Below are positions 37,300 through 46,888 of a DNA stretch of 64,000 nt, piece by piece. The notes beneath the pieces are model-generated. The model was not told where the DNA came from. It saw nothing but the letters and a program-made list of their open reading frames with translations, and searched no databases. Position numbers and translations under genes: made by a program. Source of the DNA: Octopus vulgaris (taxonomy: Eukaryota); NCBI GenBank assembly GCA_951406725.2, contig OX597816.1, positions 176,824,001 through 176,888,000 of the forward strand. Direction: 5' to 3'. Every line of letters begins with the position of its first letter. Within the stretch, counting starts at the first letter, position 1.

Positions 37300-40200
37300 A
37301 TCAGAAATAGAAATAGAATGCTTAAACGAAAAAATTCATAGTAAAACGTAGATAGTAACCACACAGCAATGCCAAATAATGTCAGAAGTAATGGGACTGT
37401 AAAACACAAAGACAGACGTAACATGTCCAACAAAAATGAAGTGAACAACAAAAGACAACAAACCCTGATCAGAGGAATGTCTAAGGATGAGCAAAAGGCG
37501 CCAAACAAGAACACCACAGACACAAATATGAATGGGAGGCAATATGAAACAAATCTAAAATCTGGAAAGAGCAAAGGTGAAACTAATGATTATAATATTC
37601 TGCAAATGAGCATAATCAAAGAATTGAAAGCCACAGATCTCAGTATGGACCACTGATTATACCTCCCCAAAATTAAAATTGATGATAAATAGCATGAACC
37701 TGGCCGTCACAGAACTAATAGCCACAGAAACAAATGTCAGTATGACCAGGCTAAATGATATAATATATGCAGCAGCCTCTGTGGACACAAAAAAAGCTGG
37801 ATACCCTCTAAAACCCATCCAAATAGGAGCATCACCACCCAAACAAACCCTATGGGTAAATAATATCCAGAAAAAATAGAAAAGAAAAGAAAAGATCTAT
37901 CAATCCTTAATGAAACTAGTAGACAATCAACACTACTAAGCAACAGTAAGGGAAGATAAATGCTACATAAATTACAAAATTACAGAGCAAGGTATACCTG
38001 AAGTAAAAGAACAACTAAAGCAAGATGTCCTTGCCAAAGCACAAAGAATCTAACGGTATGAGAAATGCCAACATTTCTTTGAACAAAACAAACAGTTCAA
38101 CTCCAACCCCAAAGATTCTACCAAGAACTTGGCAAAAATAAAATAAAAATCAGTACAGCACCAATAGCAGAAGAAGTGGAAGAATTTTGGAAAGAAATAT
38201 GGTTGGTGAAGGAACAACCTCAGCAAAGACATATCGAAAGAACAGACACAGCACCTGAACAACTCTGGACCCCTGCAACAACTGAACTGCAATAATATCG
38301 CAGAGAATGAGCAAACAACTTGAAGAAAACAATCTGTTTCCAGAAGAGTAGAAGGGATGCTGCAAGGGCTCATATGGCTGTAAAGATCAGCTACTGATCA
38401 ATAAAGCCATAACTGAAGACAGCTGCAGAAAGAAGGTCTAAGTATGGCCTGGATCAATTACTCAAAGGCTTTTGATAGTATTCCTCACACATGTATCCTA
38501 GAAATACAAGCCATGAACAAGGTAGCACCAATAATCATAAGATATATAAAACATTCCATGAATAAATGGCAGACAGTACTACAGCTCTAGACAAAAGAGG
38601 GACTCATAAAAACCGAAGCCATTAGAAGAGGAATATTCCAGGAAGACGTGCTTTCTCCACTCCTATTCTTCTTGGCACTGACACCTTTCTCTGACATGCT
38701 AAACAGAACTGGATGTAGATACAATTGTCACGTCAAAACAACCAGCCGCCTCTTATATATGGATGATCTAAAACTGTACCCTACAAATGATAAACATCTG
38801 GAGACATTACTACAGACAGTACATAGATTTACCAAAAAATAAGCATGAAATTTGGCTTAGAAAAATGTGTCAAAGCAACCTTGAAAAGAGGAAAACTAGT
38901 TAAGAGTAGTAACATCACACTAGATAAAGCTAATGGAATATGAAAATTAGACCAAATACTTAGGAATCAATGAACTAGATATGATACAACACACAAATGA
39001 AAGAGAAGATAAGAAAAGAATGCTATAGATGAGTTACATTAATTCTGAAAACAGAGCTCAATACAAAAAACAAGATAATAGGTATCAGCACTCTAGACAT
39101 CCCAGCTTCAGTATTCTTAACTGGACTCTAAATGAACTAATCAGAATAGACAGGAAAATAAGAAAAATAATAACAGGAATTAGGATGCACCACCCAAAAT
39201 CCGACAACATATCAAAGATGGTAAAGGCCTTATGCAGCTTGAAAACTATTACAAAATAACCACCATAGGACTACAGAAATACCAACTTCAGAAGCAAGGA
39301 AAACTAATACAAATAACTACAAAACATGAACAAAACAAAAAACTGTTTTCAGTCTTTAAGGAAACTGACAAATACAAAAAAGAAGTCATAGTATCTAACA
39401 ACTATGAAGAAAAAGAAGAAACAACAAAAGCTGTAAAACAACTGAAATCCAAACTAAAACTGGGACAACAATGGATCCTGAGAAAATGATGTCAAGTTAT
39501 AAGTTACAGCTACACTATCCTTAACTGGACACTAAATGAACTGACCAAAATAGATAGGAAAACAAGAAAAATAATGACAGGATCTAGGATGCGTCACCCA
39601 AAATCTGACATAGAAAGGCTATATATACAACGTATAGAAGGTGGTAGAGGACTTATACAGCTGGAAAACTACTATAAAATAACCACCATAGGACTGCAAA
39701 AATATTTACTTCAGAAGGAAGGAAAAATGATACAAATAGCAGCAAAACACGAGCAAAACAAAAAACTGTTCTCAGTATTTAAGGAAGCTGACAAATACAA
39801 ACAAGAAATCATACCACCTAACAAATATGAAGAAGAAGAAGAAGAAGAAACAACAAAAGCTATAAAACAAATGAAATCCAAACTAAAAATAGAACAGCAA
39901 CGAACCATGATAAAACGATGGCAAGAAAACCCCCTTCATGGCAAATAGTGGGTTAAACTAAATGCAAAAGAAATAGACAAAGCAAAATCCCAGCAATGGT
40001 TGAGAAGCTCAGGACTCAAAGCAGAGACTGAAGGATTTTTAATTGCAGCACAAGACCAAAGCCTCCCCACCAGAAATTTCCGAAAACATATAATGAAAAG
40101 AAACATAACACGTAACTGCAGAATATGTGGAGATGGAGAAGAAACAATAAATCATATTGTCTCTGGCTGCCCAGTCTTGGCTAAGAAGGAATATATTCAC

Positions 40201-40770
40201 AGACACGACAAAGTTGGAATCTATATACACTGAAAGCTATGCCAACACTATGGAATAACAATAGAAAAAAGATGATATAGGCACACACCAGAAAAGGTCA
40301 CAGAAAATGAGAAAGCAACCAGACTCTGGAATATGCTAATACTCACAGATAGAGAAATTAAAGCCAATAGACTGGATATAGTTGCTAGAGATCATCAAGA
40401 AAAAATGCTTTCTTATCGATGTATTAATATCAACAGATGATAATGTTTCTCTTAAAGAAACAGAGAAACTTTTAAAATACAGAGATCTGGAAATAGAGGT
40501 AACACGAATGTGGAGTCTAAAAACAAACAATTCCTGTTATAGTAGGCGCATTAGGTATGATGAAAAATATATTCAGACAAATACATAACAAAAACACCAG
40601 GACTAACAAGTATATATAACATACAAAAAATAGCACTACTAGGCACTGCACAACAGCCTATGTAACACTTTCAATACAGTAAAAATAAGAGCATCACAAC
40701 AAACTACAGCGCATAACCAAGGCACATAGTAGTGCAGTGAAAGCACCGTGATAAAAATAAGACTACTGAA
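37300..40770 (+). mobile_element. Decayed R4/Dong-clade RLE non-LTR retrotransposon (with internal duplication or nested copy)
   Basis: Fragments GCKDQLLINK, KAFDSIPH, RRGIFQ, LSPLLF, LLYMDDLKLY, MHHPKSD, ETEGFLIAAQDQSLPTRN, CRICG..EETINHIVSGCPVLAKKEYIHRHD, and an NR.DI/LIDV nuclease region; many stops. The 5' boundary is uncertain. Confidence 0.82.
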
Positions 40771-40824: not shown

Positions 40825-41250
40825 TAGGCACTAGGCCTGAAATTTGGTGGGAGGGAACTAGTCAATTACATCAACCCCAATATTTCACTGGTACTTAATT
40901 CATCAACCCCAAAAGGATGAAAGGCAAAGTTGACCTCAGTGGAATTTGAACTCAGAATATAAGGATGGATGAAATGCCACTAAGCATTTTGTCCGGTGTG
41001 CTAATGATTCTGCCAGCTTACAGCCTCATGCACAATAATAATAATAATAATAAAATCCTTTCATCTATAGGTGCAAGACCTGAAATTTTTGGAGAGGGAA
41101 ATAGTTCATTAGTTGATTACTTTGATCCCAGTATTCTACTGGTACTTATTTTGTCAATCCTGAAAGGATGAAAAGCAAAGTCGAGCTCAGTGGAATTTGA
41201 ACTCAGAATGAAATGATGGACGAAATGCCCAGGGTACTGAGGATTCTGCT
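40825..41250 (-). mobile_element. Two tandem copies of a second tRNA-SINE family (others ~2010-2200 +, 7080-7270 +, 45247-45440 -, 56350-56525 +, 61320-61522 -)
   Basis: Shared core GGATGAAAGGCAAAGTTGACCTC..GGAATTTGAACTCAGAA and TAAGCATTTTG..CTAATGATTCTGCCAGCT; (AAT)n-type tails. Confidence 0.75.
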
Positions 41251-41331
41251 ACTCAAGGCCTTACTGCTGCTGCTGCTAATAATAACAATAATAATAATAA
41301 TATTAATAATAATAATAATAATAATAATAAT

Positions 41332-44300
41332 TGATCTAGCAAGCGGAGCCTCATATCAGTGAGGGGGGCCGGTGCGCATTGATGCCGTCGAGAGGTAGGC
41401 CCCGAAACGGCAGGCATTCTCTCCTGATGACCCCATACACTTGCTGGCTTCTGGTATACGGAGTTTTTGACTGCTAGCACTTGCATGTGCAAGTTGTTTG
41501 CAAGACATCTAAGACCATGTGGTAGGTAACCACTGACAAACCGGAAAGACGGTTAGGCATCTTGGAAAGACAAGAGGACTGCTCGGAAAGACGAGCGGAC
41601 AATAGGAAAGACTATCGACACCAGGAAAGACCGGTGGAGGCTGCGGACTTACGATCCTCGCCTTTGTAATATATTGTAACAGAAATGAATGGAAATGACA
41701 GCCCCACGATTGACTGAGAGGGGGGAGTCGAGAATCAATCAAACCCAGTCAGCACGGGAATGACCTTGGGAACGAGTACGGTTATTCATTCAAACAGTGA
41801 ACGAAATGCAAACAACTTTGGATGCAAGCAGCGCTATAGAACCTTTGCAACTGTGATGGGCTTGAAGATACATCAGGGAAAGACTTGTGAGAAGAGGACA
41901 GAGCAGTGTGGATCATCAGATCGTAAAACACGTGGCAAATCATCCCCGGACTCAAACCACAGCGGATCGATAAATGCTACTGCAGAGACCTTCACGTGAT
42001 GAAACTACAAGTCATGAAACTGGTGCATCGGATAATACTCAGAGGAAACCGAGGGTTTTGTGGCCTGATGCTAATGAGAAAGGGAAATATAAAGAGTTTG
42101 AAAACAAGGTTTGTCGGGCTCTTTATAAAATGACAGGCTCTACAGTGGAGAAACTGGGTAAATTATCAAGCTCAATATACGATATAGGAAAATATTTATT
42201 TGGAGTAAAAGAGAATATCCGACTAGAGAAAGGAAAGTGTGGACCAAGCAGGAGGATCAGGAAATTGCAGCAGTTGAGGAAGGAAAAGACCAACCTAAGA
42301 AAGCGATGGAGATGTGCTACACTAGATGAGAAACCTGGCCTTGCGCTGCTGTATAACGATTTGAAGAGGAAATGTCGTTATGTGCAACGACATATCTGCC
42401 GATATGAGCATCGAAAGGAGAGTAAAAGGACTCGGAGGCAGTTTCTGAAGGACCCGTACGGGTTTATTAAGAAGCTGTTCAATGAACCGAAGAGTGGTTC
42501 TTTATCGTGCACAAAAGAAGAATTGGATGCTCATATCAAGGAAACCGACAGCGATTCTCTCCGTAACCAGCCACTGCCACCTCTACATGGGCTAAATCAT
42601 CTCTCAGGACCTGATATCGAATTCCAGATTGGGGACATCAGGGAGAGAGAGGTGAATGACTTCGTAAGAAAAGCTAGAGCAAAGAGTGCCCCAGGAGGTG
42701 ATGGCATCTCATATAAAGTCTACAAGTACTGCAATCGTCTGCGAAAGAAGCTCTTTGTCCTACTCCGACAACTGTGGCGCGAGGAGACTATAGTAGAGGA
42801 TTGGTGTCAGGCAGAAGGTATATACCTGCCGAAAGAGGCCAATGCAAAGACCATTAAACAGTTTAAGCCGATATCCTTATTGAATGTGAAAGGCAAGATC
42901 TTTATGGGAATTCTGTCGAGGAGAACAGTGACATATTTACAGAATAACAGATATGTTGATGAATCTGTTCAAAAGGCCGGAATCCCCAGGATCCCTGGAT
43001 GCGTTGAACACTGTTTTTCGATTTGGAAAGCGATCCAGGACACCAAACAGAACAGGAAAAGTCTGAACGTGGTATGGCTCGATCTAGCTAACACATATGG
43101 TTCAGTGCCACACGAATTACTAATGAGAGCCATGGACCACTTCCACATTCCAGACAAAGTGATCAAAGTAATGAGGATGTACTATGACAGTTTCGAAATG
43201 AGGTTTACAACCGGAGATTTTACAACAGATTGGCTCCGATTGGAGATTGCATTGCTGCTGGCTGTACAATATCTGTCACGTGGTTTATCTTAGTCATGGA
43301 GATGATTTTGAAAGCTGTAGATTTTTTGGAACAAATCGTCCATGTACAATCGCCTAAGAAAGCCTTCATGGATGACGTGACACTTCTAGCTACAGATAAA
43401 CAAATCATGCAGAATGCCCTCTTGAGATTAGACAAACTTGTGAGGTGGTCAAGGATGCGATTTAGAGCAAAAAAGTCGCGTAGTCTGACATTTGTTAAGG
43501 GAGTGCAGAAAGAATTTAAGTTTCGAATATCTGAAGAAAGCATTCCAACAGTCAAGGAAGAGCCCGTCAAGAGCTTGGGACGAGTATACGCTGGAACATT
43601 GTCAGAGAGAAGTCGTGGGATTGAAATTATGAAACAGGCCGAGGCTGGGTTATCGGCGATTGATAATTCGAAGTTACCAGGTAACTATAAAATTTGGTGC
43701 TTGCAGTTCGGCTTGTACTCGCGTGGCCACTTTTAATATACGAGGTAGCATTGTCACGAGTTGAAATCATTGAACAAGAATTTAATGCGTTCATTAGAAA
43801 GTGGCTAGGTCTACCTCGTATGTTGAACAGTTCAGCTCTTTATCATAAAAGAGGTTCATTGCAGCTACCAATAGCATCAATAGTCGAAATATATAAGCTG
43901 GGGAAGATACGGACAGTCATGATGCTGAGAGAATCGAAGGATATGGAAATCACGCATAACCCACCAGAGGTGAAAGCAGCCAGGAAGTGGAAAGCAGAAG
44001 CAGAAACTGACGACATCTTGTCTTCTCTTATACACAGAGATATGGTGGAAGCAACGCAGAACCATCGGAAAGGATTTGGTTTTGGCGCGGATCAGTTCAG
44101 ACCATTTGCAAGCATGATGCGGAGTGAACGCAGATCTGTTATTAGCAACAGCGTCAAAACAAGAGAAGCAGAGAGAAGAGAGCTTCATTTGATCCGATGT
44201 GTTCATCAAGGTCAGATGACGAGATGTGAAGAACATGTTGTTGAGAGGAAGATAAGTTGGGATGAGATGTGGAAGTGGATGACATCTCGGCTGAGTTTCC

Positions 44301-45245
44301 TGATTCGTTCATCTTATGATGTTTTGCCATCACCTACGAATCTAGTAAGATGGAACGTCTCAGAGAATGACATCTGCAAATGTGAAAGGGTCGGTACACT
44401 GAAACATATTCTTTCCAACTGCTCACTAGCATTGAACAGGTACACATGGAGGCACAACTTGGTCGTTAAGGTTATCTTCAATGCTATAAAGAACCAAATT
44501 CATCTCAACAACACTGAGAAAAAAACCGTTAAAAGTACCATCTAGAGATTTTGTTACCTTCGTGCGACCAGGTCAGCAGATCCGTTTCAAGAAGAAGATC
44601 AAGAAACTTTCTGAGAGAAATGAAAAGTGGAACGGCTATTGGGAGGTAACTGCAGATTTACCTGGGTGCCAGGTTTTCTTTCCCATCCCAATTACGAAAA
44701 ATACAGATATTTTGATGTGGTGTGAAAGAAGGAACATTGTAAATATAGTCGAGTTAACGGTTCTTCATGAAGATAATATGGACGCCGCTCGGGCTCGAAA
44801 ATTGAACTGTTATGAAAACCTCCTCGAGGAATGTGAAGACGTAGGCTGGAAAGCGGAACATTTTGCTATCAAAATCGGATTTAGAGGGTTTGTTGGACAC
44901 AGCGTGAGACGACTGTTGTTATTGCTAGGCCTAACTCATCGTAAAGTCAATACCACCATGACTGATATCCAATCTACAGTGGAGAAGGCTAGCCACTGGA
45001 TTTGGTTAAAAAGAGACGATGAGCGATGGATAGAAGGATATTGAGCTTATTTTAATAACCTGCTGATCTAACAAGTGGGGCCTCATATCAGTGAGGGGGG
45101 CTGGTGCGCATTGATGCCGTCAAGAGATAGGCCCCGAAACGGCGCGCATTCTCTCCTGATGACCCCATATACTTTGCTAGTTTCCGGTATACGAAGCTTT
45201 TGACTGGTAGCACTTGCATGTGCAAGTTGTTTGCGAGACATCTAG
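41332..45245 (+). mobile_element. HERO-clade RLE non-LTR retrotransposon, near full length, frameshifted, with ~180-bp terminal direct repeats
   Basis: ORF pieces 41760-41999 (zinc-finger-like C...GLKIHQGKTC), 41974-43293 (SAPGGDG, FKPISLLN, QKAGI..PGCVEH, WLDLANxYGSVPH), 43230-43736 (GCTIS, AFMDD), 43694-44545 (YDVLPSPTNL, CxC....TLKHILSNC, RYTWRHN) and 44562-45044 (xDI, VELTVxxE RLE core). Direct repeats at 41332-41511 and 45064-45245. Confidence 0.85.
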
Positions 45246-45979
45246 GGTATAAGGACTGAAATTTTGGGGGATGGGGAAAATCGATCTCATTGATCCCAGT
45301 ACTTGATTGGTACTTAATTTATTGACCCCCAAAGGAATGGAAGGCAAAGTTGACCTTGGCAGAATTTGAACTCAGAACATAGTTGGATGAAATGTTGCTA
45401 AGCATTTTGCCTGGTATGCTAATGAGTCTGCCATCTTGCCCCTTTGTATAATAATGATGATGATGCTAGTAAGATTGAAAATTGCGTTTTGTGTAGATAC
45501 AAAGCCTGAGCTTTCAGAAAAGAAAATTAATAAGTGTGACGTTGATGTTTTTAATATGATTTATATTTTTTATTGATTTGATCCAAAGAACATCTTCGGT
45601 CCCAAACTGCATCTCCTCTCCTCTCTTCCACACATTTCCTCTTCATACTCTATGATTATCGTCCATTTGCCAATCCTGTCCTCACTCCCCTGCTCACTGT
45701 ATCATTGCTATCTATGTAAGTTCTCATCAGTTACAGCATTCTCCATCTCCACTCCCTACTTGCAACTTCTTAGCAATACCCTGCCATCTATATTATGACT
45801 TCCATACCTTGGTAATATGTCCTGGCCCCTGCCATCATTGATCTCTCCTTTCCTTACTCTACCATCTCATCTATGCCCTGAACCCCATTCCTTGCAACTG
45901 TACCCTGACTCTTTGCCACCATTTCTTCCCTGCTCTCTCTTGCTGTCTCCCACTTTCTCTCTCTCTTTCCTTTCCTCTT

Positions 45980-46390
45980 CCTTCTGGCTGGGTAACCATG
46001 TATCTCCTCTTCAGCAGCATACCTGTTTCTGCCCTCATCCTTGATCCCTCTGTCCCCACTTCTCTTGTTCTTACCTCTGGCTCGGTAACCATGCATCTCC
46101 TTTAAAGCAGCACACCTGTTTCTGCCCTCATCCTTGATCCCTCTGTCCCCACTTCTCTTGTTCTTACCTCTGGCTCGGTAACCATGCATCTCCTTTAAAG
46201 CAGCACACCTGTTTCTGCCCTCATCCTTGATCCCTCTGTCCCCACTTCTCTTGTTCTTACCTCTGGCTTGGTAACCATGCATCTCCTTTAAAGCAGCACA
46301 CCTGTTTCTGTCCACTTTCTTGTTAACTCTCTCTCTCTCTCTCTGGGTAACCATGTATCTCCTCTTCAGCAACACACCTGTTTCTGTCCT
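45980..46390. repeat. 93-bp tandem repeat (minisatellite, ~3-4 units)
   Basis: CCTGTTTCTGCCCTCATCCTTGATCCC at 46022, 46115 and 46208. A related GGTAACCATGTA..CTCCTCT..AGCA..ACACCTGTTTCTG motif is also duplicated at ~2240-2300 and ~2540-2600. Confidence 0.85.
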
Positions 46391-46888
46391 CATTCTTAAT
46401 CATGCAAAAAGCACTCAGTCCACTCTTTAGGGTGATTGGTGTTAGGAAGGGCAACCATCTGTAAAAATCATGCCAAAACAGACACAGTCACCTGGAGTAG
46501 TCTTCTACCTGGCTGGCTCCTGTTAAACTGTCCACCCCATGCCTACATAGAAAGCAGATATTAAATGATGATGGTGATATATATATATATATATATAGGG
46601 CCAAGATAACTTACACCTTGTCATTCTCACGAAGACTTGTACTCCACAGTAGAAGTGTGAAGACTGATCCTTCTAGTGGTGCGAAGCTAGTAGGGTGTGA
46701 TATGAAGAGACTTGGCTACCTTTTCTTGCAATTTGGGCAAGTATGTAAAGGCTCCCTCAACTTGTTAATAATGAACATAACTTATATTTGTGGGATTCAA
46801 ATACTAGTTAAGAAGTAACCAATTGCAATCTAGTATCTGTGTTTTAAGACAGATCAACCATCCATCATCTTGCTGTATGTATGTGTGT

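Follow-up and report, generated by a model that had tools for sequence, protein, structure and literature searches.

A predicted hammerhead ribozyme of unusual connectivity in the 3' untranslated region of a HERO retrotransposon from Octopus vulgaris, and its possible link to circular RNA

In animal retrozymes, hammerhead cleavage and an RtcB-type ligation lead to circular RNA (PMC7229834), and for retrozymes and Penelope-like elements such cleavage, ligation and circular RNA have been proposed to supply the template of retrotransposition (PMC7229834, PMC6155905). Hammerheads in which the cleavage block (S), the GAAA block (G) and the CUGAUGA block (C) follow each other in the non-circular order S-G-C are published for metatranscriptome RNAs as type-SGC hammerheads (HRIMA-1), none of which was placed in the genome of a known organism, a single GCS candidate being the exception (Eckert et al. 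2023, PMC10085705). Elements of the HERO clade mostly insert without site specificity (PMC4640811). Here we describe a HERO element in a stretch of 64,000 nucleotides of Octopus vulgaris (contig OX597816.1, positions 176,824,001 to 176,888,000; "the window" in the following), whose 3'-terminal untranslated region (3' UTR) very probably forms a rewired hammerhead, predicted from its sequence to be a self-cleaving ribozyme.

The 3.9-kb element is situated between an (AAT)n run and the body of a short interspersed element (SINE). The same sequence of about 180 bp had been noticed at its start and end, and the two repeats are indeed 90.6% identical. Each contains one copy of the motif; features are given in window coordinates, with hammerhead numbering for the core residues.

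41332..41511, + strand: partial repeat at the 5' end, duplicating the last 180 bp; not a long terminal repeat (LTR), length varying within the family
45064..45244, + strand: 3' UTR repeat, without a poly(A) tail
41511..41512, + strand: fixed junction of the 3' end with the 5' UTR
41345..41434, + strand: 5' ribozyme copy, pairs counted on the sequence
41345-41348/41431-41434, + strand: helix A of the 5' copy, one mismatch at 41347
41349-41364, + strand: hairpin H of the 5' copy
41365-41370/41398-41403, + strand: stem II of the 5' copy, its 5' strand GGGGCC lying upstream
41372-41375/41414-41417, + strand: stem III extension of the 5' copy
41383-41388/41407-41412, + strand: stem III of the 5' copy
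41390-41395/41418-41423, + strand: stem I of the 5' copy
41404-41407 (GAAA) and 41424-41430 (CUGAUGA), + strand: core letters of the 5' copy
41389..41390, + strand: predicted scissile bond C17|G1.1 (repeat positions 58|59), with a pile-up of genomic 5' ends at 59
45077..45166, + strand: 3' ribozyme copy (5' copy plus 3732)
45077-45080/45163-45166, + strand: helix A of the 3' copy
45081-45096, + strand: hairpin H of the 3' copy
45097-45102/45130-45135, + strand: stem II of the 3' copy
after C45121, + strand: predicted cut of the 3' copy; the first pair of stem I is lost through a G>A change at 45122

The hammerhead parts listed for the 5' copy in the original prediction, which was made from the window sequence alone, were all confirmed in place: TGCCGT-C (41383-41389), GAGAG (41390-41394), GGCCCC-GAAA-CGGCA (41398-41412), CTCTC-CTGATGA (41419-41430) and the upstream GGGGCC (41365-41370). 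For the 3' copy, the stem II partner had been put wrongly at 45077-45083, which is a strand of helix A; the partner is 45097-45102. Helix A and hairpin H are two helices beyond those recognised before. The parts had also been said to stand in an order fitting none of types I, II or III, and this holds, the order being S-G-C. The classical stem II is absent: a pyrimidine stands after CUGAUGA as well as before GAAA and the two never pair, the 5' strand of stem II lies upstream, and two helices replace the A9-G10.1 link. The three-way junction is accordingly not closed by the bases after A9 and before G12; its G-C pair uses an upstream G.

The motif exceeds chance expectation: of 4500 dinucleotide shuffles, 3 matched a descriptor combining the S-G-C core and its stems I and III, and 0 of 4500 did so once the extra helices were added. 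Neither copy in the window satisfies the strict descriptor, a single damaging change being responsible in each case (G>A at 41347, within helix A, and G>A at 45122, within stem I). When both strands of the window (128 kb) were scanned, one match was obtained on the minus strand near 25267; element sequence is absent there and the match was judged to be due to chance. Rfam reported no ribozyme family in the window at E<=10 or in seven relatives at E<=1, as an architecture that breaks the block rule would explain.

The structure was compared among relatives from the host genome and from metagenomes. A divergent query uncovered families B, C and D of the host (15 copies each) in addition to family A, to which the window element belongs. 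The metagenomes contributed 12 loci, of which 11 (all but L101) were examined; their nuclease domains are 29-90% identical over the best segments and 38-59% for long matches. The motif is present in nine of the 11, while L097 ends too early and L102 has none. In the common layout, the 5' strand of helix A, hairpin H and the 5' strand of stem II abut, blocks S, G and C follow, and the 3' strand of helix A stands immediately 3' of CUGANGA. The strict descriptor is matched by 17/30 copies of family A, 2/15 each of D and B, 1/15 of C and five of ten metagenome loci, and no copy of families A to D or of the metagenome loci checked by descriptor has a classical stem II of 2 bp.

In an alignment of 11 rows, among which there are related rows that can inflate pairing figures, the proposed structure is paired in 91.1% of cells with eight pairs changed on both sides; none of 500 shuffles scored as high and slid controls reached 41-58%. 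The classical stem II, paired in 4.5% of cells and in none of eight lineages, was rejected. These eight lineages, out of nine tried (the family-C majority failed, and the metagenome rows are those passing the strict descriptor), were chosen by descriptor, so that pairing among them arises by construction, which counts against taking it as support, and only the pattern of change is informative: 15 of the 19 core-proximal pairs changed on both sides, and the invariant pairs are the first two of stems II and III (G10.1-C11.1 and its neighbour, U16.1-A15.1 and G16.2-C15.2). CUGANGA varies only at N7, where U, G and A occur, and residue H17 is either C or A. Within the hammerhead core only N7 and H17 are free, so the confinement of variation to these two residues and the invariant core pairs are what hammerhead chemistry requires. 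Stems I and III abut the core and covary, and five helices do so altogether (I, II, III, A and H). Conservation of the core and covariation of the stems were found across relatives, and the earlier suggestions of a pseudoknotted hammerhead and of an upstream stem II strand are supported. A search for relatives gave only two weak matches in a viral collection and none in prokaryote genomes; the motif pattern had no match in either collection.

In families B, C and D (L170-L199, L155-L169) the H loop is palindromic, which may signal a kissing dimer; that of family A is complementary to CUGAUG and lacks a palindrome. By eye, a tRNA-like stretch lies upstream of the ribozyme within the 3' UTR of families B and C and of the metagenome loci L096/L097 (L096 1566-1700; in L125-L129 just 3' of the stop codon).

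The predicted cut, 122 nt before the element end, is matched by the 5' ends of genomic copies. A genome pattern scan for copies losing similarity between repeat positions 52 and 84 (a 33-nt window) returned 69 matches, namely 48 indels or rearrangements and 21 true 5' truncations; two of the latter are duplicates and some at 83-84 look decayed, which only dilutes a peak. Eight of the 21 begin at position 59, one base past the predicted cut (for a uniform spread P is 1e-7, or 3e-6 when multiplied by 33), in support of the cut position originally proposed. A second pattern gave seven matches, six of them solo copies about 122 bp long that begin at 59 (one had already turned up in the first scan) and the seventh an internal deletion rejoining at 59. 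Both scans combined yield 13 distinct solo copies beginning at this base. A T stands directly 5' of 11 of the 13. Its origin by CpG decay of C58 was rejected, as C58 is changed in 4/120 copies and no truncation ends at 58; a non-templated base or a target preference is likelier. Non-templated base addition is a property of R2-type reverse transcriptases (RTs). Structure-induced stalling of the RT would be expected to stop at the 3' edges of helices and not at 59, because the pairing partners of position 59 are already copied by then. The peak may be regarded as an indirect, site-exact footprint left in vivo by cleaved RNA that begins at the scissile bond.

The repeat at the 5' end was followed in family copies of the same genome (2200 candidates, 40 scored, 30 fetched). 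Most family copies are 5'-truncated 3' ends; none of 107 has poly(A), and their 3' termini scatter across a few bases. Of the 30 copies bearing a 5' UTR, 26 have sequence from the 3' end of the element in front of it, between 9 and more than 1500 bp long, the remaining four are truncated inside the UTR, and none of the 30 begins at the junction. An exhaustive pattern scan found the junction crossed in one register by 22 of 23 matches. The inconstant length speaks against the fixed 180-bp pseudo-LTR postulated earlier, as it does against an LTR. For a comparison of paired repeats, 17 loci were set against a panel of 77 copies after two spurious pairings and repeats shorter than 80 bp had been dropped; the pairs have 42 rare and 61 minor variants in common and 163 private changes. 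Both repeats of one locus thus come from one template. With 26/30 copies and the common variants at 17 loci, the upstream repeat is a family trait, and a chance tandem or double insertion was rejected. Simple trimming of read-through RNA to unit length, the function first suggested for the ribozyme, is unsupported or at least incomplete as an account: 19 of the 26 upstream repeats reach past the predicted cut and none begins there. No indel, and hence no scar of a template jump at the cut, was seen at 58|59 in 120 copies reading across it. Two of 36 3' ends reaching the junction continue four bases into the 5' UTR, a weak hint. Outside family A, partial tandems were found once among 16 stretches: a family-D copy has a 3' end/5' region/3' end layout with an internal deletion and a weak protein match (E 5e-5), and a pair in family C looked like a local duplication.

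The upstream repeats of L041, L052 and L054 begin at repeat position 153-154, inside a small hairpin, a possible RT pause. Internally deleted copies (L030/L036, L038, L040, L051, L053, L054, L056, L058, L059) combine about 270-850 nt of the 5' part with 300-630 nt of the 3' part at individual breakpoints and are probably non-autonomous derivatives mobilised like retrozymes. One locus (L107, G000:C11:84627001-84637000) contains two young copies, nested and inverted. Many homologues are on contigs of 3.5-4.4 kb, about unit length, for which collapsed repeats or self-closing contigs are possible.

The best model for these data, which we favour by a little, is that double cleavage would produce a unit-length RNA that would probably be closed into a circle, and that reverse transcription would go round this circle more than once. 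In this model a partial-tandem copy carrying two intact ribozymes would be transcribed, and two cuts would release an RNA that starts at G59 and leads round the element to C58. The cut is spanned by helices A, II and III, which would keep the ends together for ligation, which may be of the RtcB type by analogy with retrozyme RNAs. The protein would bind the 3' UTR and prime inside the RNA near position 180 on microhomology. RNA left unclosed would give rise to the 122-bp solo copies; closed RNA would yield copies of arbitrary length, among them copies exceeding one unit, and the latter would regenerate masters with two ribozymes. The ligation, the internal priming by a protein with a restriction-like endonuclease (RLE) and the circle itself are inferred. 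In run X1, the RNA status of which is a guess, the long contig of greatest depth (1283 nt, depth 76) joins its own ends across ribozyme and junction, giving an internally deleted, self-closing unit of 1254 nt.

Several points weigh against the ribozyme and the circular template. None of the 26 upstream repeats begins at 59, and as most copies read through the cut, their templates must have been uncut or rejoined. The one disagreement at a polymorphic site is in the window element's own repeat pair. Priming would have to be internal. The X1 contig fits a DNA tandem array as well as a circle, its deletion joint is absent among the genomic copies inspected, and no such joint is listed for the other three runs. 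Pseudoknot-free thermodynamic folding gives no ribozyme signal (z 0.25, -0.67, 0.19), and in the predicted folds a competing long hairpin, in which the H loop pairs with CUGAUG, buries CUGAUGA; this hairpin may be an off state. The A9-G10.1 link is assumed by Eckert et al. to be uninterruptible (PMC10085705), and no precedent for helices between A9 and G10.1 was met in the literature searched.

A linear template is the strongest alternative to the circle, though a rather unlikely one. Here the ribozyme is real and cuts at the upstream copy (leaving a 5' end at G59) or occasionally, and tandems arise by RT jumps, either from the RNA end to a sibling molecule or over a nicked product complex held by base pairs. 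Template jumping is known of R2-type RTs. This explanation accounts for the pile-up at 59 and, if one master locus is expressed, for the same-template repeats, since the common variants also fit jumps between sibling transcripts of one active locus; moreover, the four helices spanning the cut would presumably hold a nicked RNA shut. It is harder to reconcile with the missing copies that begin at the junction, with a junction register that stays constant although insertion 3' ends vary by several bases, with the missing indel scars at 58|59 and with upstream repeats that never begin at 59.

The two other explanations fit worse than the linear template. A structure of the 3' UTR that does not cut, hammerhead-derived or hammerhead-like, could bind the element protein for target-primed reverse transcription, with tandems produced by read-through of genomic tandem masters. 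In R2 the 3' UTR is the binding place of the element protein, and the motif sits where RLE elements bind theirs; reading through of the cut by most copies, the broken A9-G10.1 link and the predicted folds burying the core would agree with such a role. We nevertheless consider it improbable, as it explains neither 5' ends exactly at the scissile bond nor variation restricted to N7 and H17 across proteins 38-59% identical. A dimeric or trans-acting ribozyme, in which two RNAs or repeats exchange stem II strands, is more improbable still: the palindromes in H of families B, C and D and the dimeric hammerheads of Penelope elements and amphibian retrozymes (PMC7229834) speak for it, but in eight lineages a stretch of 90-122 nt suffices for all five helices to close in cis, family A has no such palindrome, and the cis fold with its two further helices accounts for the covariation, so that the dimer or trans assembly considered in the original prediction is not needed.

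The remaining parts of the window element and of its insertion site are as follows.

41278..41331, + strand: (AAT)n, left half of the interrupted SINE
41539..41634, + strand: 5' UTR array of five short hairpins, spaced 19-21 nt, with differing stems and one loop, G-GAAAGA-C
41718..45044, + strand: remains of the open reading frame (zinc finger, RT, CCHC knuckle, PD-(D/E)xK nuclease) in five frame-shifted pieces
45239..45244, + strand: CATCTA, common to element end and SINE target, priming microhomology
45245..45440, + strand: SINE body, right half of the target

Two of the five frame-shifted pieces have weak RT matches. Young relatives in the same genome encode a single frame of 1175 codons with the four domains (motifs by eye), the closest solved relatives of which are R2 proteins; one four-domain frame and 5'-truncated copies characterise it as a non-LTR element of the RLE type. 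Membership in HERO, as originally assigned, is borne out by RT signature stretches compared by eye, without a tree: the frame of the young copy L105 (unit at G000:C10:113825090-113828827) and HERO-1_BF have LLNVEGK, VQKAG.PG.PGC.EH, EPVKSLGR and LPGK.K.WCLQ in common, and the stretches occur also in HEROTn and HERO-1_SP and are absent from the Utopia, R5 and R4 rows compared (PMC7650587 supplement). Among 7999 candidates scored, 662 homologues were found at E<=1e-30, and those carrying a name include sequences from Aplysia, Branchiostoma and Diadema. In the Octopus vulgaris genome the family is young (copies 99.5% alike, with open frames), hence natural active sequences exist. A single insertion splitting one SINE had been suggested and is corroborated by the right flank, which continues the SINE, and by a neighbouring SINE copy, the CATCTA of which coincides with the last six bases of the element; about 10 bp of the target were lost and no target duplication is present. 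In the 5' UTR array, the stem of the fifth hairpin is broken in the window copy and intact in L105. A sixth G-GAAAGA-C hairpin is located inside the reading frame (41874-41887), and all six plus-strand occurrences of the loop 8-mer in the window are these hairpins. Short hairpins with comparable purine loops occupy the corresponding position in family D (L356 2440-2560). The array is likely to represent putative protein-binding sites. Besides the element, the window contains a 93-bp pyrimidine-rich minisatellite in four to five copies to its right (45863-46401) and, upstream, a fragment of another non-LTR element (zf-RVT match, 39949-40233) and two SINE copies (about 40830-41020 and 41060-41230).

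The HERO literature searched mentions neither a ribozyme nor a partial-tandem structure in the accessible text, and no HERO-hammerhead link was met in the openly accessible papers searched, PMC12192606, PMC3088659, PMC10162972 and PMC13725137 among them. We regard the motif as a structurally new hammerhead within a known retrotransposon clade, and there is a real chance that a new mode of replication goes with it. With such a hammerhead, an architecture would be added that breaks the block rule behind the enumeration of possible permutations, a non-circularly permuted ribozyme would be placed in animal genomes, and RLE retrotransposons, now developed as gene-insertion tools, would have a second ribozyme solution. 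It becomes testable whether an autonomous element of the long interspersed element (LINE) type primes inside circular RNA and copies beyond one round. The wider proposition, that the HERO clade consists of autonomous coding LINE-type elements replicating via circular RNA and rolling-circle target-primed reverse transcription, with a topology of non-circular block order and a four-way junction in place of stem II, is evenly balanced in our view; if true, a whole animal retrotransposon clade would work like a coding retrozyme.

Among known systems, the HERO motif shares with type-SGC hammerheads the non-circular order, the full core and a short linker from stem I to stem II. In type-SGC, however, the strand that follows CUGAnGA and the one that precedes GAAA form stem II together, each of which pairs with an upstream strand instead in HERO (0/8 lineages with the type-SGC pairing), and block C is uninterrupted there and interrupted in HERO (PMC10085705). 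As in the pseudoknot (PK) hammerhead (PMC11300833), helix II is replaced by other helices with the core kept; in the PK hammerhead a pseudoknot and an added stem-loop take its place, whereas HERO differs in connectivity, keeping G10.1-C11.1, with two helices between A9 and G10.1 and the order S-G-C. Non-LTR retrozymes and Penelope-like elements (type I hammerheads) likewise contain the hammerhead in tandem copies (PMC7229834, PMC6155905), but the retrozymes are non-coding and 170-400 nt long, in contrast to the 3.7-kb autonomous RT-RLE element of HERO, and Penelope elements belong to another class of retroelements. With R2 the element has in common the architecture of the RLE clade, a self-cleaving RNA (predicted in HERO) and target-primed reverse transcription (PMC13708176, PMC13580325). 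The R2 ribozyme resembles that of hepatitis delta virus, lies in the 5' UTR and sets the 5' end, whereas that of HERO is hammerhead-like, lies in the 3' UTR and goes along with copies lacking a defined 5' end.

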